Source: Vibrio sp. | GTDB taxonomy: Bacteria; Pseudomonadota; Gammaproteobacteria; Enterobacterales; Vibrionaceae | Assembly (NCBI GenBank): GCA_050296215.1 | Contig: JBNKRC010000001.1 | Coordinates: 40 to 64,039, forward strand | DNA: 64,000 nucleotides | Reading direction: 5' to 3' | In this document: positions 1,360 to 35,116 of the stretch, one piece after another | How the letters are laid out: every line of letters starts with the position of its first letter | Position numbering within the stretch: position 1 is the stretch's first letter | Notes under the pieces: generated by a model | Told to the model about the DNA's origin: nothing | The model's input: only the letters and a program-made list of their open reading frames with translations | Databases searched by the model: none | Position numbers and translations under genes: made by a program

Positions 1360-2448
1360 TCAGACGGTACGACAGTAATCGATCGCCTGCTCAATCACAC
1401 TTTCAGGTGTGTCTTTTCTGACTTCGGAGCTGCCGATACCGGTTGGCAACACCAGACGTAATTGTCCGGCCAGCACTTTCTTATCCCGCATCATATGCTT
1501 GATAAAATCAGCGTAAGACATACTTTCCGGAGTCTGCACCGGCAACTTAGCCTGTTTTAAAATGGCAATAATACGGGCTAACTGTTCATCACTGATCAGA
1601 CCCTGTAATTGCGCCGTTTTTGCCGCCATGGCCGTACCGGCCGACACAGCTTCACCATGCAGCCAGTTACCATATCCCAACTCGGCTTCAATCGCATGAC
1701 CGAAAGTATGGCCAAGATTCAGCAATGCCCGGATTCCCGATTCTTTTTCATCCTGAGCAACCACTTCCGCTTTAATGGAACAACAACGGGCAATGGCATA
1801 AGAAAGTGCCTGATTATCCAGGCTATACAACCGGTCCATATTTTGCTCAAGCCAGTCAAAAAATTCAGCGTCATAAATAATGCCGTATTTGATCAATTCA
1901 GCCATACCGGCAGCAAATTCCCGTTCAGGCAGCGATGCCAGACAATCGGTATCAATAATCACAGATTTAGGCTGATAAAACGCCCCAATCATATTTTTAC
2001 CGAGAGGATGGTTAACCGCCGTTTTCCCCCCAACCGAAGAATCAACCTGTGACAACAGGGTAGTCGGAATCTGAACAAAATCGACACCTCGCTGATAACA
2101 GGCGGCAGCAAACCCCACCAGATCTCCGATGACACCACCTCCAAGCGCAACCAATACCACATCACGGCTATAGTTGTTCTCTATAAGAAACGTCATCACC
2201 GTATTAAAAGTATCGAGGCTCTTATACTTCTCACCATCCGGCAATTGTAAAACCGACGTCTGACACCCCTGCTGTTCGATCAGCGCAACAACACGATCAG
2301 CATACAATGGTGCAACCGTTACATTGGTGATAACGACGACTTTTTGCTTAGAGGAAATAAAAGAAAGAAGGGCCGGATCATTAAATAATCCGGCACCAAT
2401 CGAGATTGGGTAGCTACGTTCATCTAAACTGACCGTAATCCGCTCCAT
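1360..2448 (-). CDS. aroB: 3-dehydroquinate synthase
   Basis: [27 protein letters not shown] and [12 protein letters not shown] motifs. Confidence 0.98.
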
Positions 2449-2473
2449 GGGGGGTACTCCAATATCTGTTATA

Positions 2474-2992
2474 TTATTGTTCTTCTAACATTTTTACGAT
2501 CTCATTGGCTACAACTTTAGCACTTTGATCGTCTGTTTTCACAACAATATCGGCAACTTCTTCATAAAGAGGGTTGCGCTCTTTAGCCAGATTCTCAAGA
2601 ACTTCTCGAGGATCATCGGTTTGCAGCAGCGGGCGCTTTTTATCGCGGTTAGTACGGGCAAGCTGCTTCTCAATTGTAGTTTCCAGATAAACAACCACAC
2701 CGCGAGCCGAAAGACGGTTGCGGTTTTCTTTGCTTTTAACTGAACCACCACCGGTTGCAAGTACAATGCCCTGCTCCTGAGTAAGATCGTTCAGCACAGT
2801 TTCTTCGCGCTTGCGGAAACCGTCTTCACCTTCAACATCAAATACCCAAGCAATATCTGCTCCGGTGCGTTCTTCAATCACAGTATCTGAGTCAACGAAC
2901 TCCATATGAAGTTGTTGTGCCAGGTATCTTCCGATTGTACTTTTGCCGGCACCCATCGGGCCAACAAGAAAAATATTACGTTTTTCAGCCAT
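2474..2992 (-). CDS. aroK: Shikimate kinase I
   Basis: [32 protein letters not shown]. Confidence 0.98.
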
Positions 2993-3179
2993 GTTTAGCA
3001 GTAATTTGTAATGTTAATTCAATGACATCGCCACAAGATCACTCACCGATTTTATTTACAAAATCAGCCTTGTGGCACCAATTCCTCACAGATAATTCGT
3101 GATAAGACCCGAAATTATCTAGATCTGAGTGACCGAATGCAACTTTATTTTTTTAACGCATCAAAAAATAAGGGGTAAC

Positions 3180-4391
3180 TCATTGAAACATCAGGGTTGG
3201 TGTGACAAATATTAGCAATTCATTTTTACTTGAATGCTGATAGTCCCGGCGGAACAGCGCTCCGACCAACGGCAGATCGCCCAGCACGGGCACTTTATCA
3301 CGACGGTTAATCGTGCTCTGCTGATAGATTCCCCCCAGCACAATCGTTTCTCCATTACGTACTTTAACCTGCGTCGAAATACGCTGAGTGATGATCGCCA
3401 CGGCTTCCCCGGTTCCGGTTTTAACCACTTCGCCGGGACGGTCCTGTGTAACGCCTAACTCCAGAATGAGCTGATCGTTATCACTGAGAAACGGAGTCAC
3501 TTCCAGACTCAGCACCGCTTTTTTAAAAGCGATGCTTGATTTGCCATCTTCATTCGACTCCTGATAGGGGATTTCGGTTCCCTGTTCGATATAAGCTGTT
3601 TTCCGGTTGGTGGTTAATAATCGAGGACTGGAGATCACTTCGGCTTTAGACTCACTTTGTAAGGCCGACAACTCCAGATCCAGCAAGGTTCCGGAACCCA
3701 GTTTTGCTAGTTGAAAAGCCAGCGCGGATGCATCACCCGAACCAGAGGGCAAATTAACACTCAATTGTTGATTGATCCGTTCACCGGTTTCCCCGGCCGT
3801 ACTGCTTCCCTCAATAGAACCACCGATTGGTAATGTTGTGGTCTGATTGACCAATCCCCAGCGGACTCCGAGTTCGTCCAGTTCACCCTGATTGATAATC
3901 ACTATCCGGGCTTCAATTTCTACCTGCCTGATCGGCACATCCAGCGTTGCCACCAGTTGCCGCACCTGTTCTATCACGTCGGGATAATCCATCACCACTA
4001 AGCTGTTGGTTCTGACATCGACACTTAATTGCCCTTCAGGTGACAATAAACCGCTTCCTTGTCCGCTCTGGAATACCTGAGCGATATCGTCGCTTTTAGC
4101 ATAAACAAGAGGAAGCACCGCAAATTCTGATTTTTCAGGCTTAACCGCTTCAGGCTCAGGACAAAAGGCTTGCCTGACATCCGATATAATATGACCGGTA
4201 AGCGACGCATCCTCCTGATGAACGGCAGATGATAACGGGACACCGGTAGCAAACGGGTCAGGTGGACTTTCCTGAGCCTGAACCAAACCGCTCAAAAACA
4301 GCCCCATAAATAAGTGGAGCGCAAGGGCCCGCCTCAGACTGATACAGAAATGATCCCTACGCATAATCCATTGTGAGAGATAGCTAATCAT
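3180..4391 (-). CDS. pilQ: Type IV pilus secretin PilQ/HofQ, N-terminally shortened
   Basis: D.RTNSL, QVEIEARIV, IEQGTEIPY and KVPVLGDLPLVGALFR...ELLIFVTP secretin motifs. Only 403 aa. Confidence 0.88.
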   Translation of the reverse strand: MISYLSQWIMRRDHFCISLRRALALHLFMGLFLSGLVQAQESPPDPFATGVPLSSAVHQEDASLTGHIISDVRQAFCPEPEAVKPEKSEFAVLPLVYAKSDDIAQVFQSGQGSGLLSPEGQLSVDVRTNSLVVMDYPDVIEQVRQLVATLDVPIRQVEIEARIVIINQGELDELGVRWGLVNQTTTLPIGGSIEGSSTAGETGERINQQLSVNLPSGSGDASALAFQLAKLGSGTLLDLELSALQSESKAEVISSPRLLTTNRKTAYIEQGTEIPYQESNEDGKSSIAFKKAVLSLEVTPFLSDNDQLILELGVTQDRPGEVVKTGTGEAVAIITQRISTQVKVRNGETIVLGGIYQQSTINRRDKVPVLGDLPLVGALFRRDYQHSSKNELLIFVTPTLMFQ

Positions 4392-4948
4392 TGTAATGCC
4401 TCCGGCAACGAAATAAGCCAGTACAGACTGGCCTGAGCCTGAACATCGATCCTGTCACTATCTGGTGCATCTCTTTTCCATGTCACCTGACTAAATACCA
4501 CCACAGGATCCGGTTCTCCAATACGTAATAAAAAGTCACTAATCTGTGTATAATGCCCGCTCAATTCCACGATAAACGGGGACTGAACACGTTCTGCTGT
4601 ACGTTGTTCGCCAAGCCATTCAATATGTTCAATGGTTACCTCCGAATCCTGAGCCGAATCTGCCATATGTTTAACCACAAACGCAGAATCATATGACACT
4701 GAAAAACGGGCGGCCTCGGCTTTCCAGGATTGAATGTCTTGCTCCCACTCCTCTTGCTTTAGTCTGAACTGTTCTAACTTTCTCTGCGCCATATTCCGCT
4801 GGTGATGCAGAGGAACAATCGCTTGACTGAGCTGATCGACCTGACGGTACTGATTCGGCCAGAAAAACAGATCAAGCAGCAGCCATATACATGTAATGAC
4901 AATCACAGTGACGATCCACGGTAAACATTTCTGTTTCACACTACTCAT
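4388..4948 (-). CDS. pilO: Type IV pilus assembly protein PilO-like
   Basis: N-terminal TM, coiled coil, 'PFIVELSGHYTQISDFL' PilO-like motif, operon position. Confidence 0.75.
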   Translation of the reverse strand: MSSVKQKCLPWIVTVIVITCIWLLLDLFFWPNQYRQVDQLSQAIVPLHHQRNMAQRKLEQFRLKQEEWEQDIQSWKAEAARFSVSYDSAFVVKHMADSAQDSEVTIEHIEWLGEQRTAERVQSPFIVELSGHYTQISDFLLRIGEPDPVVVFSQVTWKRDAPDSDRIDVQAQASLYWLISLPEALQ

Positions 4949-23778: not shown

Positions 23779-24252
23779 TTATGCCTGAGGTTCTTCAGCT
23801 TTTTCTTGCGCCTGTTGTTGCAGATAATTCATAAACAACGCATCAAAATTAACCGGAGCCAGGTTCAACTGAGGGAAAGTACCTTTCACGACCAGACTTG
23901 AAATAGTTTCACGTGCATACGGGAAAAGAATATTCGGGCAGAATGCACCCAAACAATGAGCCAGCTGGCCCGCTTCCATTTTCTCTGCAGTGAAGATACC
24001 CGCCTGCTGAACTTCACATAAGAAAGCTGTTTCTTCAGCATTCGTTACGGTTACGGTTAAACGAAGAACAACTTCATACACCCCTTCACCGAGTTCACGG
24101 CTCTGAGTATCCAGATCCAGATTCACATTCGGATCCCACTCTTTCTGGAACATTACCGGTGAATTTGGCGCTTCGAAAGAAACATCTTTCAGATAGATGC
24201 GCTGAATGGTGAAGTTTTGTTGCGGCTCTTGTTGCTGTGCTGCGTCTGACAT
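23779..24252 (-). CDS. secB: Protein export chaperone SecB (housekeeping copy)
   Basis: [35 protein letters not shown]. Confidence 0.97.
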
Positions 24253-29220: not shown

Positions 29221-29583
29221 ATGATTAACCAAAATCCAAAACGTTCAGATGAACCCGTCTGGTGGAGCCTGTTCGGTGCAGGCGGCACCTGGTTCGCTAT
29301 GATCACGCCTGTGACTATCCTGGTGTTAGGTATTCTGGTTCCGCTGGGTATCATTGATGCCGATGCATTAAGTTATGATCGTGTCGCTGACTTTGCCACC
29401 AGCATCATCGGTGCGCTGTTTGTGATTGCGACGCTGGCACTGCCAATGTGGCATGCCATGCACCGTGTTCACCATGGTATGCACGACCTGAAATTCCATA
29501 CTGGTGTGGTTGGTAAGATCGCTTGCTACGGCATTGCTGGTTTTATTACCGGTCTTTCGGTTGTGTTTATTTGTATGATTTAA
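29221..29583 (+). CDS. frdD: Fumarate reductase subunit D
   Basis: [29 protein letters not shown]. Confidence 0.95.
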
Positions 29584-29605
29584 GTTTGTGTTTATATTCC
29601 GAGCT

Positions 29606-29636
29606 TAAAAAAGCGCCGAATTTTTCGGCGCTTTTT
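29606..29636. terminator. frd operon terminator (bidirectional type)
   Basis: aaaaaagcgccgaa-ttt-ttcggcgcttttt. Confidence 0.8.
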
Positions 29637-29673
29637 GTTTGTTCTGTCGGTGAGTTTTTCGGGGATATGGTGG

Positions 29674-29764
29674 GTATAGTGCGCGTTTCGTTTTTCGGTC
29701 AGTTTGGGTTGTTTGTCAGCGCCCCAGTTACTTTTGCCAGGCAGCAAAAGTAACCAATAATGCC
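29674..29764 (+). repeat. Left arm of a ~91-bp imperfect inverted repeat (REP/MITE-like) with an internal GTTACTTTTGC...GCAAAAGTAAC hairpin
   Basis: Reverse complement aligns without gaps to 31321-31411, 12 mismatches in 91 bp by manual count. Confidence 0.9.
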
Positions 29765-29883
29765 GCATTAAGACATAACCAACGCGTTTGATTAACCGAA
29801 ACCAATGTACTCAAATAAGTAAATCCAGCTCATAACGCAAAATATTTGCCGTTGAGAGTTACTATCGAATGCTTTGTACGAGG
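29755..29883 (-). mobile_element. Degenerate Vibrio-type integron attC site (~129 bp)
   Basis: Minus strand, directly after the chaperone stop: cctcgTACAAAGCATTCG...CTCAACG...GGTTTCGGTT...GCGTTG...CTTAATGCGGCATTA. Compare the recalled VXR form TAACAAAGCATTCAAG...CTTAATGCGGCGTTA. Both core sites are mutated. Confidence 0.7.
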
Positions 29884-29884
29884 T

Positions 29885-30268
29885 TTAGTTGCCTTCGACT
29901 CGCTGAGTCATTGCTTGAAAGTTTACCGTTGGTAGCACCAAAGTTTCATATCCAGCATTTAATGTTAACAAACTAACAAAACTACGAAGATAAGGATATG
30001 CGATTGCAGGAGCATTAACGGTAGGGAAGTGTGAGTTTCTAAATTCTGTCGAGATATCTTCATCAGTTTCAAATTCAGCCACATATCCTAATTGAAGCTC
30101 ATAGCCATGTTCAGAGGTAATTTCAACATCAAACTTAACAATGAAAGAGTTAAGCTCTTTATCTGAGTAACCATTAGCCATACCTAAAGAGAAATTGTCT
30201 TTTGTAATCTCATCATTTGAAATAAGATTTAGATTCTCAACTCGAGTGTTTTTCAGTTGAATTTTCAT
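29885..30268 (-). CDS. SecB-like chaperone of a TAC system (CmdC-like)
   Basis: NAPAIAYPYLRSFVSLLTLNAGYETLVLPTVNF is the SecB-like C-terminal motif; third gene of the operon. Confidence 0.88.
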   Translation of the reverse strand: MKIQLKNTRVENLNLISNDEITKDNFSLGMANGYSDKELNSFIVKFDVEITSEHGYELQLGYVAEFETDEDISTEFRNSHFPTVNAPAIAYPYLRSFVSLLTLNAGYETLVLPTVNFQAMTQRVEGN

Positions 30269-30272
30269 AAAG

Positions 30273-30521
30273 TTATGCCGCTAACTGGAATGTAGAATCG
30301 TTCGCAGTTCCTAACATGAAATTTTCTTCACAACCACTGAGGGACACACTATGCCTGTATGTAATTGTCCCCGTGTCTGGAAGAAAACTCTTCTCAGACA
30401 TATTGAAAGTAAGTTTACGAACTGGGGTGTACCCAGCTTTAACGCACTCAGTTTCAAATTCATCTGCTGTCATAGAGTCAATATGTGCAAGAGCTTCATC
30501 TAACATCTGTTGTAAATTCAT
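30273..30521 (-). CDS. Putative antitoxin with ssrA-like C-terminal degron (CmdA-like)
   Basis: 82 aa, start overlaps the toxin stop (TAATG); ends ...TANDSTFQLAA, cf. ssrA tag AANDENYALAA. Confidence 0.8.
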   Translation of the reverse strand: MNLQQMLDEALAHIDSMTADEFETECVKAGYTPVRKLTFNMSEKSFLPDTGTITYRHSVSLSGCEENFMLGTANDSTFQLAA

Positions 30522-31075
30522 TACATTACCTCCCCATCACAAACGATTTCTATAGTTTCTTTAACTATAGAAGCTGGTACTTTAACACACAAGACCGTTG
30601 TATTAGGAACATTTGAGCCAATTTTCTTTATCCGTTGTATCTTAGATTTTATATAAAGATTATGCACCACTGCATCGAGTTTCATTGTTTGCGCCACTAA
30701 ATTCCACATAATGCGGTCATCACACCAAACGTTCCTGTTCTTTTGGAAACACTCATCGTGTTTTTTTATCAATGCATCCCTGAGAGTATTAAATACTTTC
30801 AAACCGTCTAGGTTCGTTGTATCTAAAACTCGGCCACATACAACTTCTGCTTTAAAAACAACAAACTTATCGTAATCAACTTTGCCCTTGTTATATGCTT
30901 GGTTTTTCGCCCACTCCATGGCGTTTTTTTGTGGGTCACTTATACCATCTACAAAAAAGTAAACACCATACCCTAACCATTCATCTTCATTTTCGCTTTC
31001 TCGGAAGTTTTCCGACAAGATAGAGTCGATGTTATCAAAATCTGATCCGTGAAAGCCATTATATTGAATTGTCAC
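30521..31075 (-). CDS. Putative ADP-ribosyltransferase toxin (CmdT-like)
   Basis: GFHGS (His9) and WLGYGVYFF (Tyr39), typical of H-Y-x ART folds; first gene of the toxin-antitoxin-chaperone operon; GTG start. Confidence 0.78.
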   Translation of the reverse strand: MTIQYNGFHGSDFDNIDSILSENFRESENEDEWLGYGVYFFVDGISDPQKNAMEWAKNQAYNKGKVDYDKFVVFKAEVVCGRVLDTTNLDGLKVFNTLRDALIKKHDECFQKNRNVWCDDRIMWNLVAQTMKLDAVVHNLYIKSKIQRIKKIGSNVPNTTVLCVKVPASIVKETIEIVCDGEVM

Positions 31076-31320
31076 AAAAACTATCCGAGTTATTTTGCCC
31101 TAAACGTGGTATTTCAAAAATAGAAACTATTATGCATTCTGACACACAATGCTATCTATTAAAACCTTAACAGTTCTTATACGAGCACTATTCGTATAAC
31201 TCATAATGGCCCACTTTCGTTTCAGAAACTCACTGCACCAGGGAAAATTTCAGGGATGAAATTTTAGGTTTTGGCGCTTGGAGCGATCCAAAACCGACCG
31301 GACCACGAGCTCGAATCCCA

Positions 31321-31411
31321 GGCATTTTTGGTTACTTTAGCTGCCCGGCAAAAGTAACTGGGGCGCTGGCGAATAACTCAAATTGGCCGAAAAACAAAAA
31401 GCGCACCATAC
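31321..31411 (-). repeat. Right arm of the ~91-bp inverted repeat
   Basis: ggcatttttggttactttagctgcccggcaaaagtaactggggcgctg... is the reverse complement of the left arm. Confidence 0.9.
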
Positions 31412-31430
31412 TCCCCCACCCCAAAATAAC

Positions 31431-32558
31431 CTACAAATGCTTATGAAACCGCTTAGCCGCCACAAAAATCCCCACACAGGTAAAGCCAACCAGCCACAAC
31501 GCATCTTTACTTAAGGAGAAGACTTCCGCTTTTCTTAACACCACCCCGCGCACCATGCGGATGAAATGCGTTGCCGGGAAGACTTCCGCAATCCACTGAG
31601 CCGCCGCAGGCATCGCTTCATAGGGAAACATAAAACCGGACAACAGGATCGACGGCATTAACACGAACACGGTCATCTGCATCGCCTGTAACTGGGTCTT
31701 GGCAATCGTACTGATCACCAGCCCCATCGTCAGGCTGGCGCAGATAAACAGTAACGAGGCAAGCAACAACGAATCCAGCCCGCCGCGAATCGGCACCGAA
31801 AATACCCAGTGCCCCACCCCAAGGATAATGGCTACCTGAATTAACCCGACCAGAACATAGGGTACGATTTTCCCGACCATTAATTCAAACGGCTGAACCG
31901 GCGTTACAATCAAAAACTCCATATTCCCCAGTTCACGTTCACGGACTATCGCCGCGGAGGTAAACATAATCATGGTCATGGTCAGAATAACCGCCAGCAG
32001 ACCCGGCACGGTGTTGACCACTGAACGCTGCTCGGGATTGAAATATTCCACCACCTCAAACGTCGGCACACTCTGAACGACGGAACGCCCGGCCACTTCA
32101 TCCAGTGGTAAATTACGTAATGCACGGATGCTGGCTGCCACCATGGTATCGGAGCCATCAAGCAGCCACTGACCGACCGGCTGAGTGATCGGCGACATCT
32201 CACGCTTACCGTCAAACGCCGGATGATTCACCAGCCGGTGACCTAAATCGGGAGGGAGATACAGTACGGCTTTAACTTCTCCATTCGTGATCGCTTTTTC
32301 TGCCTGCGACAGTGAGGTATAGAGATATTTAAAATCAACCACCTGAGTTACGCTGATTGCCTGTTCGATTGCCCGGCTGTAGCTGCTCTGACTCATATCC
32401 ACCATACCGGCAGGGATATGGCGCACATCGGTATTGATCGCGTAACCAAAGAGCAGCAGCTGTAACATCGGGATCATAACGATCATACCGAACGTCATAC
32501 GATCCCGCCGGAGCTGTTTCAGCTCTTTGATCACAATCGCCATCAGTCTAGCCAACAT
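31431..32558 (-). CDS. ABC-2 transporter permease (YbhR/S-like)
   Basis: KELKQLRRD, IVRERELGNME, GKIVPY, LLSGFMFP. Confidence 0.92.
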   Translation of the reverse strand: MLARLMAIVIKELKQLRRDRMTFGMIVMIPMLQLLLFGYAINTDVRHIPAGMVDMSQSSYSRAIEQAISVTQVVDFKYLYTSLSQAEKAITNGEVKAVLYLPPDLGHRLVNHPAFDGKREMSPITQPVGQWLLDGSDTMVAASIRALRNLPLDEVAGRSVVQSVPTFEVVEYFNPEQRSVVNTVPGLLAVILTMTMIMFTSAAIVRERELGNMEFLIVTPVQPFELMVGKIVPYVLVGLIQVAIILGVGHWVFSVPIRGGLDSLLLASLLFICASLTMGLVISTIAKTQLQAMQMTVFVLMPSILLSGFMFPYEAMPAAAQWIAEVFPATHFIRMVRGVVLRKAEVFSLSKDALWLVGFTCVGIFVAAKRFHKHL

Positions 32559-33504
32559 GACGACCTCCCGTACTTAATACAAAGACATCTTCCAGACTGG
32601 GGCGAACCTCATCCATCTGATAATCGGGACAACAGGATGCAATTAACGCTTTCGGGTCGGCGTGTTGCTGCCGGATAAGTACCCTCAGACGGCTGCCGAT
32701 CTGCGACGCGGAAATAATATCATCCACACCGCTGAGACGCTGTTTGACTCCCCGTAAGTCATCGCCTCTGATTTCAATCACTTTCGCGCCCATTGATTCC
32801 ATCAGATCCCGGGGAGAGCCATCGGCTCGTTTCACCCCTTTTTCCATGATGGCTAGCTGATGACAGCGTTCCGCTTCATCCATATAGTGGGTCGATACCA
32901 GAATCGTGGTGCCTGCCGAGCAGAGATCGAACAGACTTTCCCAGAAATCACGCCGGTTCTGCGGGTCGACGGCGGATGTAGGCTCATCGAGAAAAAGCAG
33001 TTCCGGCCGGTGCATGGTGGCGCACGCTAAAGCCAGGCGCTGCTTTTGGCCGCCACTCATGGTACCCGCCAGCTGTTTACTCCGTTTACTCAGCTCGTAC
33101 TGTTCCAGTAACTCATCCACACGGTATTTATCTTTCACACCATAAATCTTGCCTACAAAACGCAGATTTTCTAATACGGTGAGATTGTCGTATAAGGAAA
33201 ACTTTTGCGTCATATACCCGATACGGTTTTTGAGTTTTTCTTCATTACCCGCCAGCGGCTCACCAAGAATATTCACCTTCCCGGCCGAGGGCGGCAGCAA
33301 TCCGGTCAGCATGCGGATAAGTGTCGACTTGCCGCAACCGTTCGGTCCGAGAAATCCGTAAATGCTGCCTTTGACCACCTTGAGGTCCAGTGAATCCACG
33401 GCGGTTAAATCCCCGAAGCGCCGCGTCAGTCCGTACGCTTCAATCGCATAGTCTGTCGCATAATCTGTTGCATAGCCTGCGTCGTTCATCTCCGCTCCGC
33501 TCAT
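32548..33504 (-). CDS. ABC transporter ATP-binding protein
   Basis: GPNGCGKS, MSGGQKQR, LFLDEPT, THYMDEAE. Confidence 0.95.
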   Translation of the reverse strand: MSGAEMNDAGYATDYATDYAIEAYGLTRRFGDLTAVDSLDLKVVKGSIYGFLGPNGCGKSTLIRMLTGLLPPSAGKVNILGEPLAGNEEKLKNRIGYMTQKFSLYDNLTVLENLRFVGKIYGVKDKYRVDELLEQYELSKRSKQLAGTMSGGQKQRLALACATMHRPELLFLDEPTSAVDPQNRRDFWESLFDLCSAGTTILVSTHYMDEAERCHQLAIMEKGVKRADGSPRDLMESMGAKVIEIRGDDLRGVKQRLSGVDDIISASQIGSRLRVLIRQQHADPKALIASCCPDYQMDEVRPSLEDVFVLSTGGRHVG

Positions 33505-34439
33505 GGTAAATGCACCTCAACACCGATGCCGACCACCAACGACTCATCTTGTGGTAACTCAATATCAGTGAGATACATCAAACGCGCACGATCACGTTCA
33601 TTCAGCGCAAAATAAGGGGTAAATGCCGGGCGACTTCGGATGTTTGAAACTTTCCCCCTGACCGGCTTATCCCGTCCGGAAACCAGCACCTCTACCAGAT
33701 CACCCTGATGAATTTTATTCAGCGCCGTCGCGGGAAGGTACACCCGTGCATAAGTCCGCTTATCCGACAACAGGGTAATTAACTGCACGCCCGCCGCAAT
33801 GCGATCCCCTTGCTGCCAGGGCAGGATATCCACCACCCCAGATTCTGGCGCGACTAAGGTTAAATCATCCAGTGACTGTTTTGCATAATCCAGCTCCGCC
33901 TGAGCCAGCCGTACCTGTGCCTCAGCCTGAGCCACCTCTTCACTGCGAGCCCCGTTTTTTAACTCTAACCACTGCTGATTTGCCTGAGCCAGCTGAGCCG
34001 CACTTTGATCTTTTTGTGCCCTTGCGGCATCCAGTTCGGCTTTATTTGCCACATTTTGTCCATATAACGTCTTGATGCGCTGATAGCGCTTATCTGCTTC
34101 ATCAGCCTGAGCCCGAGCGGCCTGCACCGCAGCTCTGGCGGCCGATAACTGTTCACGCCGCGCACCGCTCTGCACCTGATCTAACTGAGCTCGCGCCAAA
34201 TCCAGTGACGCCCGCTTCTGTTCAACCACCGCCAGGGCATGGCGATCATCCAACTGAAGCAGAAGATCCCCGGCCTGCACCGGCTGCCCCTCCTCTACCG
34301 CAATCATACGGATCGGTTCCGATGCGGGTGCCGAGAGAACGATCCGGTCACGCTCTACCACGCCCATCGCCCGATCGCCCTGTTCTTCTCCACAACCGAT
34401 CAGGAGAAAGATCAGTAACGCACTGAGAAAATATTTCAT
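33501..34439 (-). CDS. HlyD-family periplasmic adaptor (lipoprotein-like)
   Basis: LLIGC lipobox, VEEGQPVQAGDLL, long coiled coil, FTPY motif. Confidence 0.9.
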   Translation of the reverse strand: MKYFLSALLIFLLIGCGEEQGDRAMGVVERDRIVLSAPASEPIRMIAVEEGQPVQAGDLLLQLDDRHALAVVEQKRASLDLARAQLDQVQSGARREQLSAARAAVQAARAQADEADKRYQRIKTLYGQNVANKAELDAARAQKDQSAAQLAQANQQWLELKNGARSEEVAQAEAQVRLAQAELDYAKQSLDDLTLVAPESGVVDILPWQQGDRIAAGVQLITLLSDKRTYARVYLPATALNKIHQGDLVEVLVSGRDKPVRGKVSNIRSRPAFTPYFALNERDRARLMYLTDIELPQDESLVVGIGVEVHLP

Positions 34440-35116
34440 TGTTCAACTCCTGATTCACTTAAGTCAGGTAAAGGAAAACGGAATAAACCCTGACTCATAA
34501 CCTGACTATTATGCACCAGCAGTTTGTCGAGCATTTCCGGGCAGATTGACAACTCCAGCTCATCAAGCAACAATTTTGGGGCAATCAATGGAAATACCAT
34601 CAAGCTGACAAAACTCAGTTTGACCAGATTAGGATCAAGGTTTGGATTTAATTGCTGCCGTTCGGCTAACATAAAAACCCATTCACCAGCGCTGCCGAAT
34701 ATTTCCCGAAAAACGGTAGACAGGATGTTATAAGCTTCCTGATTACTCTGCTGTTGCAATACCTGAAAAACCAAACGAGACAACGCCGGAGAGCTGGACA
34801 TCATTTTGTAATATGCACTCATCAAATCGAGCGGGGAATCTGCCATGCTATGGCTATTCTTGCGCAGCATGTCCACAACCGGAGAAAATGTCTCTCTGAC
34901 CATGGTTTCAAACAGCCCTGCTTTTGAGCCAAAGTAATAGCGAATCATAGCAGGATCAACATCTGCTTTATGCGCAATTTGCCTTAACGAGACCCGATCA
35001 TAGTGATTGTGCAGAAAACAGTTGCGTGCAGCCTCTATTAACGCCGTTCGGGCATGCACATCATTTTTAGGTCGTCCGGGTTTGGCTGGCATAGATCCAC
35101 TCTCATATAATTCCAC
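34436..35116 (-). CDS. TetR/AcrR-family transcriptional regulator
   Basis: GRP...SLRQIAHKADVDPAMIRYYFGSKAGLF HTH; the start could also be 35092. Confidence 0.92.
   Translation of the reverse strand: MELYESGSMPAKPGRPKNDVHARTALIEAARNCFLHNHYDRVSLRQIAHKADVDPAMIRYYFGSKAGLFETMVRETFSPVVDMLRKNSHSMADSPLDLMSAYYKMMSSSPALSRLVFQVLQQQSNQEAYNILSTVFREIFGSAGEWVFMLAERQQLNPNLDPNLVKLSFVSLMVFPLIAPKLLLDELELSICPEMLDKLLVHNSQVMSQGLFRFPLPDLSESGVEQ

Follow-up and report, generated by a model that had tools for sequence, protein, structure and literature searches.

The window, a 64,000-nucleotide stretch of a Vibrio sp. genome, carries a three-gene toxin–antitoxin–chaperone (TAC) operon. This assignment is real and well supported by the gene order, a CmdC-type chaperone, a toxin with a modelled ADP-ribosyltransferase (ART) fold that has H9 and Y39, the layout of the antitoxin, and its ssrA-like tail. 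We consider the operon to be probably an abortive-infection phage defense system, in which a predicted ADP-ribosyltransferase would be released when the chaperone is drawn off the antitoxin. It is very likely that TAC logic holds for the operon, and an anti-phage role is likely. The target of the toxin may differ from that of the CmdT toxin of Escherichia coli ECOR22, since it belongs to a separate lineage and has a different active-site residue. The features of the locus are as follows.

23779-24252: housekeeping secB, 5.6 kb from the operon
29608..29636, plus strand: terminator-like hairpin of the frdABCD operon, the left boundary of the insertion (hairpin scan)
29669..29764, minus strand: left arm, a partial copy of a dispersed multi-hairpin repeat, inverted relative to the right arm
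29885..30268, minus strand: SecB-like TAC chaperone ORF of CmdC type, 127 aa (PADLOC, Pfam)
30273..30521, minus strand: putative antitoxin ORF, 82 aa, ending in FQLAA (ORF call, alignment, structure model)
30276..30308, minus strand: C-terminal 11 codons of the antitoxin (TANDSTFQLAA), which align in register with (A)ANDENYALAA, the tag encoded by the genome's tmRNA
30521..31075, minus strand: toxin ORF, 184 aa, GTG start (ORF call, sequence, fold model)
31129..31158, minus strand: candidate sigma-70 promoter, 54 nt upstream of the toxin start (from a scan at chance level)
31227..31416, plus strand: right arm, a full copy of the same repeat family (repeat search)

The operon, its chaperone and its position

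All three operon ORFs are intact and lie on the minus strand, to the right of the frdD terminator-like hairpin. The stop codon of the toxin gene and the start codon of the antitoxin gene share a TAATG at 30521, and 4 nt separate the antitoxin from the chaperone. GC content is 0.37 for the toxin, 0.40 for the antitoxin and 0.35 for the chaperone, compared with 0.457 for the genome. These results agree with the original prediction of three coupled AT-rich genes after the frd terminator, and the motifs it reported in the 184-aa protein are all present (FHGS, which contains H9; WLGxGVYFF, here WLGYGVYFF, which contains Y39; and NTTVLCVK). Sigma-70-like sites were no commoner than chance in the promoter scan (5 found versus 5.3 expected).

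The chaperone matches the PADLOC model PD-T4-9_C (CmdC; PDLC04071) at E = 3e-40 over 123 aa and Pfam SecB at E = 1.6e-8, over the cut-off, and it falls far below the cut-offs of the NCBIfam housekeeping SecB models. PD-T4-9 is CmdTAC. The window's own housekeeping SecB is 33% identical to the chaperone over only 42 aa, and the chaperone groups with TAC chaperones, distinct from housekeeping SecB. The TAC-type, SecB-like chaperone proposed earlier is thus borne out by both models, and the separate housekeeping secB, said to be about 6 kb off, is where it was expected. In G029, an ECOR22-type CmdTAC (L021:5493-6754) lies between a prophage tail region and an integrase beside a dusA-like gene. 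The chaperone of this system and that of the window share 47% identity, though the two toxins belong to different clades. Identity to the chaperone of the E. coli prophage locus L093 is 34%. The chaperone tree mixes partners of both toxin types, but with support for just 2 of its 14 branches it has poor resolution, and we draw no conclusion on chaperone swapping.

In 8 of 19 relatives frdD is followed directly by efp, and in none of the 19 does the operon follow frdD. The window has two insertions between frdD and efp, namely the operon and an ABC/TetR block of four genes. That block (31431-35116, between the cassette and efp) comprises ABC permease, ATPase, HlyD-like and TetR-like genes, named by sequence inspection, and is found elsewhere in the genomes of relatives. 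The nearest relative by the neighboring permease gene (79%) has this gene away from frdD. An empty insertion site was not found: frdD occurred in none of 25 permease-homologue loci, which reach 1.5 kb. An independently assembled contig from sequencing run X1, possibly the source sample, covers 29244-31269 with 4 differences. Runs X2 and X3 had no coverage of the cassette, and neither showed a joint across it. A low-depth contig from run X2 is 99% like the window to the right of 31419 and then continues into a diverged outer part of the repeat, weakly hinting at a related strain with a different repeat arm.

Mobile contexts and flanking repeats

Toxin, short middle ORF and chaperone occur together in all 10 of the closest genome loci (at least 36% identity), among which one toxin and one antitoxin/chaperone pair look broken. 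Among the 25 best near-full-length loci, taken from 114 viral and metagenome loci that the search recovered, 17 have the chaperone, 5 are cut by the contig end and 3 are without it. Gene order is kept in 27 of the 30 close loci with room (10/10 genome loci and 17/20 viral or metagenome loci); the other 3 of those 20 lack both antitoxin and chaperone.

The setting of the operon is mobile and hotspot-like. The two closest matches in the viral collection (79% and 64%) are toxin and antitoxin genes downstream of Zot-family morphogenesis genes, on contigs that end at the antitoxin stop, and we place them in filamentous phages or prophages because of that position. An accessory slot after a Zot-family gene of filamentous phages (L211:1327-4803 and L212:962-4818) holds this toxin–antitoxin pair and one extra gene, encoding an 88-aa protein of unknown type in one locus and a 266-aa PLD-like protein in the other. 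An E. coli/Klebsiella prophage has a 29% toxin homologue adjoining terminase genes. Only 1 of 251 Vibrio species genomes, the window's own, gave a strong toxin match, and two others gave weak matches to a different sub-family. Close toxin homologues were present in isolates of V. parahaemolyticus, V. cholerae and V. vulnificus.

A different arrangement was seen at L213:917-2894 and at L214 and L215 (around 1480-4522), where a 38% toxin homologue without antitoxin or chaperone stands back-to-back with a gene whose 346-aa product is membrane-anchored and weakly matches a macrodomain (E = 0.008). These loci also carry a cytidylyltransferase-like gene and have either a P4-like primase or P2 tail genes as neighbors; the macrodomain-like gene of L214 is disrupted by an IS. 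We regard the arrangement as a candidate for a new ART/macrodomain defense module.

The operon is enclosed by 96-nt inverted arms (29669-29764 and 31321-31416) that are 85% complementary and had been missed in the original prediction. The repeat unit is about 150 bp long with several hairpins, and it gave 10 profile matches on 7 contigs of the window's genome. It was matched in 25 of 251 Vibrio genomes, at few to tens of copies each. None of the 38 further loci scanned that have a TAC-type system or a toxin homologue (L021, L029-L038, L092, L093 and 25 viral or metagenome loci) carries the repeat, which speaks against its being part of the TAC system itself. It marks the site rather than the system, because no other toxin-family locus carries it. 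A known RNA family was also ruled out, as no Rfam match came near the gathering score.

We looked at 21 intervals of at least 600 bp between successive repeat copies, in 20 regions hand-picked by repeat matches. Nine of the 21 face outward like the window's, with GC of 0.31-0.43. The eight of these outside the window comprise two with PADLOC defense genes (SLATT with a UG17 reverse transcriptase; a type IV restriction enzyme with a TIR protein), one with a RAYT gene, one within or beside a degenerate IS200 and four without a PADLOC match. In another interval, Gabija lies between same-strand copies. Because the sample was hand-picked and has no control, we take this as an association of the repeat with AT-rich inserts and not as defense enrichment.

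At L126-L137, L208-L210 and L023 the repeat often forms outward-facing pairs or alternating clusters, and the cargo around the copies includes DRT UG17, type IV restriction with TIR, Gabija, RAYT, a VgrG-linked cluster and several unknown genes. The bracketed AT-rich genes without a PADLOC match, at L126:2291-4781 (373, 158 and 104 aa), L023:1018-2171 (251 and 127 aa), L135:4960-6486 (120 and 304 aa) and L210:1488-3093 (361 and 125 aa), are candidate accessory or defense genes. On contig C35 of the window's genome (11356-12838), an IS110-like gene pair, encoded in two ORFs, is flanked by two repeat fragments of the same strand and seems to have split a single copy.

One inverted repeat pair brackets a RAYT gene (L132), so the repeat was suspected of being the REP sequence of a RAYT. 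This idea was dropped after the palindromes and Y1_Tnp loci were compared. The RAYT of L132 has its own shorter palindrome, and the same palindrome follows the RAYT of the window's genome, beside which the repeat was not found (the 5' side of that gene is cut off). The repeat was present at 2 of 38 Y1_Tnp loci, both in one place, and 4 of 10 repeat-bearing genomes had no Y1_Tnp match in a search that also missed the L132 RAYT. Like REPIN/RAYT sequences as described in bioRxiv 10.1101/2021.07.10.451892, the repeat is extragenic, palindromic, multi-copy and sometimes in alternating clusters; unlike them, it is about 150 bp with several hairpins, and the RAYT that it brackets has a palindrome of its own.

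Toxin active site and antitoxin tail

The AlphaFold2 model of the toxin has a mean pLDDT of 90.2, and its best Foldseek matches are PARP2 and PARP1 (E = 2e-4 upward). VIA-align against 48,161 chains placed 22 at Z of at least 8. The top rows are ART-superfamily folds, including MbcT and NatT at 9.9, PARP1 at 9.5 and diphtheria toxin at 9.1 (best row Z 9.9, rmsd 3.4, 135 aligned residues), with PARP15 and PARP10 at 7.5-7.8. Judged from the model, the toxin has an ART fold, as first proposed; the leading matches are all within about 1 Z, and no sub-family is singled out. The best PDB profile matches were the mono-ARTs PARP15, PARP10 and PARP14 (E = 0.003, N-terminal motif only), with an HGT...GxGxYF motif common to the toxin and the PARPs. 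Haemagglutinin matches in the same search were taken as noise. The clusters recovered from ESM Atlas were all unnamed apart from one with 18% PARP, below the threshold for recognition. RES-family toxins such as MbcT and NatT have an Arg-Glu-Ser motif and an Xre-type antitoxin; the toxin matches them in fold and had no Pfam RES match at E ≤ 1.

The search recovered 31 other toxin homologues at E ≤ 4e-27, and the profile search reached 92, 407 and 1838 representatives of 50%-identity clusters at E ≤ 1e-30, 1e-10 and 1e-3, respectively. Residue conservation was scored in the 174 of 181 stored homologues that are 165-240 aa long. H9 is present in 172, Y39 in 173, N158 in 172, and G35 and G37 in at least 172 each, so that these five positions are 99% conserved, down to about 25% identity. 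Position 161 is Val in 92 and Ile in 71 (163 together) and Glu, Asp or Gln in none. The mono-PARPs (PARP10/14/15) and Tpt1 work with a hydrophobic third residue. The clade further conserves Lys/Arg and aromatic residues (W33, W55, Y141, K143, R148). The toxin is net acidic, with a pI of 5.4, and the ECOR22-type protein has a pI of 6.2.

For comparison, L093 was used as a stand-in for ECOR22 CmdT (RCP66309.1). It has Tyr at 41, as in PMC11618068, and matches PD-T4-9_A, B and C at E = 3e-96, 5e-39 and 1e-60. The L093 system sits between the replication and portal genes of a P2-like E. coli prophage. Y39 of the toxin aligns with Y41, mutation of which abolished ECOR22 CmdT activity according to PMC11618068, where the CmdT triad is given as H-Y-[E,D,Q]. 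Within the CmdT family of L093 (38 proteins) the motif QQxCV is invariant. A joint MAFFT alignment of 34 proteins that included bridging QIQ and HIQ clades placed the second Gln opposite V161 (PNTTVLCV in the toxin, TRQQMCV in the ECOR22 type); this register comes from MAFFT, and the hhalign alignment stopped short of that strand. The toxin thus has the first two triad residues, H9 and Y39, and departs at the third, where in this provisional register V161 stands opposite Gln. The original prediction had noted that no acidic third residue lies near NTTVLCVK. This is true, but ECOR22-type CmdT is also non-acidic there, with an invariant Gln.

By sequence comparison, the toxin family is homologous to ECOR22-type CmdT yet forms a separate clade. 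The family profile matches ECOR22-type CmdT at a probability of 97.2 over residues 1-139, BLASTP of the toxin gave only E = 0.024, and in an 18-row tree the toxin clade (95/93 support) is separate from the ECOR22 type (100/100). The toxin clade is spread over many Proteobacteria. The PADLOC CmdT models match the toxin at E = 0.008 and 0.01, over the N-terminal part only, and detect 46 and 30 of 148 clade members at E ≤ 0.001 (best 4e-8). Because of the third residue and the marginal model match, we kept the toxin out of the ECOR22-type CmdT family. Of the checks proposed with the original prediction, PADLOC supports the chaperone and matches the toxin only marginally, and Foldseek supports the ART fold through PARP1/2. 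The operon is of TAC type, as predicted, but to call it a divergent Vibrio member of the ECOR22 kind would be too simple, given the toxin's separate clade across many Proteobacteria, the BLASTP score and the antitoxin result below. A related ART sub-family with an HIQ motif was found behind a short upstream ORF at L095:1190-2076, L039, L040, L045 and L047; no SecB-like gene lies downstream in the genome loci checked, and these are possibly two-gene systems.

The antitoxin gave no family match in PADLOC, Pfam or NCBIfam and no profile similarity to ECOR22-type CmdA (probability 0.2). The discoverers of CmdTAC/PD-T4-9 describe its antitoxin gene as highly variable and do not require sequence homology. 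The model has helices at residues 3-16 and 19-28 (pLDDT about 85) followed by a low-confidence tail, with pLDDT <50 for most of 59-82. The tail was modelled from a 13-row alignment, and its low confidence may be an effect of that shallow depth. Six aromatic residues follow residue 30.

The genome's tmRNA encodes ANDENYALAA. In register with this host tag, TANDSTFQLAA is identical at 6 of 11 positions, including A-N-D, and has Phe for Tyr; one antitoxin homologue matches the ssrA tag at 10 of 11. All 14 aligned antitoxins end in Ala and 12 of them in Ala-Ala. Asn at -9 is found in 10 of the 14 antitoxins of the toxin's clade, six of the 14 being close kin; none of the 6 ECOR22-type antitoxins has it. 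Every aligned sequence has N74, but its distance from the C-terminal end varies. A terminal LAA occurs in only 5 of the genome's 4370 six-frame ORFs. Genes for tmRNA and SspB are present in the genome. The search for clpX and clpP was negative, which is uninformative in an assembly of 77% completeness. On sequence grounds, the tail suggests removal by SspB/ClpXP. The degron-bearing middle gene of the original prediction fits this predicted tail and the CmdA-like layout.

Proposed mechanism and comparison with known systems

By analogy with the CmdTAC systems of ECOR22 and O112ab:H26, we propose that the antitoxin helices would assist folding of the toxin and block it, and that a tetramer of the chaperone would cover the aromatic tail. 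During infection, a newly made phage structural protein would outcompete the tail for the chaperone, and the exposed tail would be degraded by ClpXP, probably with the help of SspB since the antitoxin keeps the AND..F half of the ssrA tag. Against the SspB part stand the limited occurrence of Asn at -9 and the close kinship of six of the sequences. Once free, the toxin would consume NAD+ in ADP-ribosylating RNA, with single-stranded mRNA as the most likely target, and translation would stop. The acceptor is the weakest step, because the active site is altered. We lean toward RNA as the acceptor. The chemistry of ECOR22 CmdT, which according to PMC11618068 ADP-ribosylates N6-adenine in GA of ssRNA and is activated by a phage capsid protein, is conceivable here but rather doubtful.

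Several findings count against a CmdTAC-like reading: the third triad residue is Val/Ile and not [E,D,Q], the PADLOC CmdT models barely match, the antitoxin has no homology to CmdA, the best fold matches are the RES-family NAD-consuming MbcT and NatT, tied with PARPs, 3 of 20 loci are without antitoxin and chaperone, and the toxin is acidic (as is the ECOR22-type protein). In a rival reading, which we think unlikely, the same TAC switch and anti-phage role are kept but the H-Y-Val toxin modifies a different acceptor (phosphate ends of RNA, a different base, DNA or a protein) or simply destroys NAD+. The Val/Ile at 161 with nearly invariant N158, the mono-ARTs among the weak N-terminal profile matches, the place of MbcT and NatT at the head of the fold list, and the three loci that pair a 38% homologue with a macrodomain-like protein rather than with antitoxin and chaperone would all suit such a toxin. 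However, its nearest characterized relative by profile is CmdT, both characterized CmdTs modify mRNA (PMC11618068 and 10.1101/2024.02.24.581848), the conserved W33, W55, Y141, K143 and R148 would suit a nucleic-acid substrate, and a Pfam RES match is lacking.

The patchy distribution, the mobile contexts and an unstable-antitoxin design that would permit post-segregational killing could also be explained by an addiction module that stabilizes the repeat-bracketed cassette or a carrier prophage without phage sensing. We consider this improbable, as the two CmdTAC systems, MqsRAC and HigBAC of E. coli are all four phage-defensive in the published descriptions consulted, and a dedicated chaperone would seem unneeded for addiction. 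Still less credible is a catalytically dead ART-fold protein or a decaying operon: the third residue is not polar and frameshifted relatives exist (L036, L038, L182), but all three window ORFs are intact and H9, G35, G37, Y39 and N158 are almost invariant among the 174 proteins. An abortive-infection TAC system remains our preferred reading.

In its boldest form, which as a whole we think unlikely, the operon would represent a second and widespread lineage of ART immunity gated by a chaperone, one that current models under-call. Its H-Y-Val/Ile and Asn site would perform ADP-ribosylation unlike that of CmdT and closer to the interferon-induced mono-PARPs, and its antitoxin would copy the ssrA tag in full, so that SspB is recruited and release is fast. 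It would move from filamentous prophages to chromosomal slots and back, the slots being marked by a Vibrio repeat family, so far undescribed, that brackets defense cargo.

Two characterized CmdT enzymes were found in the literature. The clade described here (92 representatives at E ≤ 1e-30) keeps the CmdC chaperone and changes the third residue and the antitoxin, and so offers a natural test of how RNA-directed ARTs select their acceptor and of whether the recruitment of an adaptor modulates the triggering of TAC systems. The clade is probably under-counted, because the PADLOC toxin models barely detect it. This would extend to isolates of V. parahaemolyticus, V. cholerae and V. vulnificus, and the close homologues present there could have a bearing on vibriophage therapy. 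Further accessory cargo in Vibrio might be located by means of the flanking repeats. In the literature searched, which for the CmdTAC papers meant passages of the main text, we found neither the toxin clade nor the repeat described, and no TAC antitoxin with a complete mimic of ssrA. It is possible, if somewhat doubtful, that the clade has already been counted as CmdTAC or contains the O112ab:H26 toxin.

The toxin has the overall fold of the RES toxins MbcT and NatT and of the mono-ARTs PARP10/14/15; unlike these, which share 8-18% identity with it, it is accompanied by a SecB chaperone. M. tuberculosis HigBAC and E. coli MqsRAC and HigBAC likewise combine a chaperone-addicted antitoxin with a SecB-like chaperone, but their toxins are RNases and the window's is ART-fold. 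The CmdTAC of E. coli O112ab:H26 (bioRxiv 10.1101/2024.02.24.581848; CmdT WP_097333619.1) resembles the window's operon in its ART toxin, an antitoxin ending in Ala-Ala, which is degraded by ClpXP, and a SecB-like chaperone; it differs in an antitoxin of 121 aa rather than 82. The accession of its CmdT was absent from the homologue search results for the toxin, leaving it unplaced in the tree, and it may belong to the same clade.

With ECOR22 CmdTAC/PD-T4-9 (PMC11618068 and PMC9519451), the operon shares the T-A-C order, a CmdC-type chaperone, an ART fold with His and Tyr, and relatives in prophage accessory slots, and its antitoxin resembles CmdA in the modelled helix pair, a putatively unstructured tail and terminal LAA. 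ECOR22 CmdT alone is non-toxic because CmdA is needed for its folding, and toxicity appears with T+A, according to PMC11618068. The original prediction was therefore wrong to treat a lack of toxicity of the toxin alone as evidence against it. The window's operon differs from ECOR22 CmdTAC in its toxin clade, in Val161 in place of Gln, in an antitoxin that is not homologous and whose tail resembles the whole ssrA tag, and in its chromosomal position between inverted repeats.
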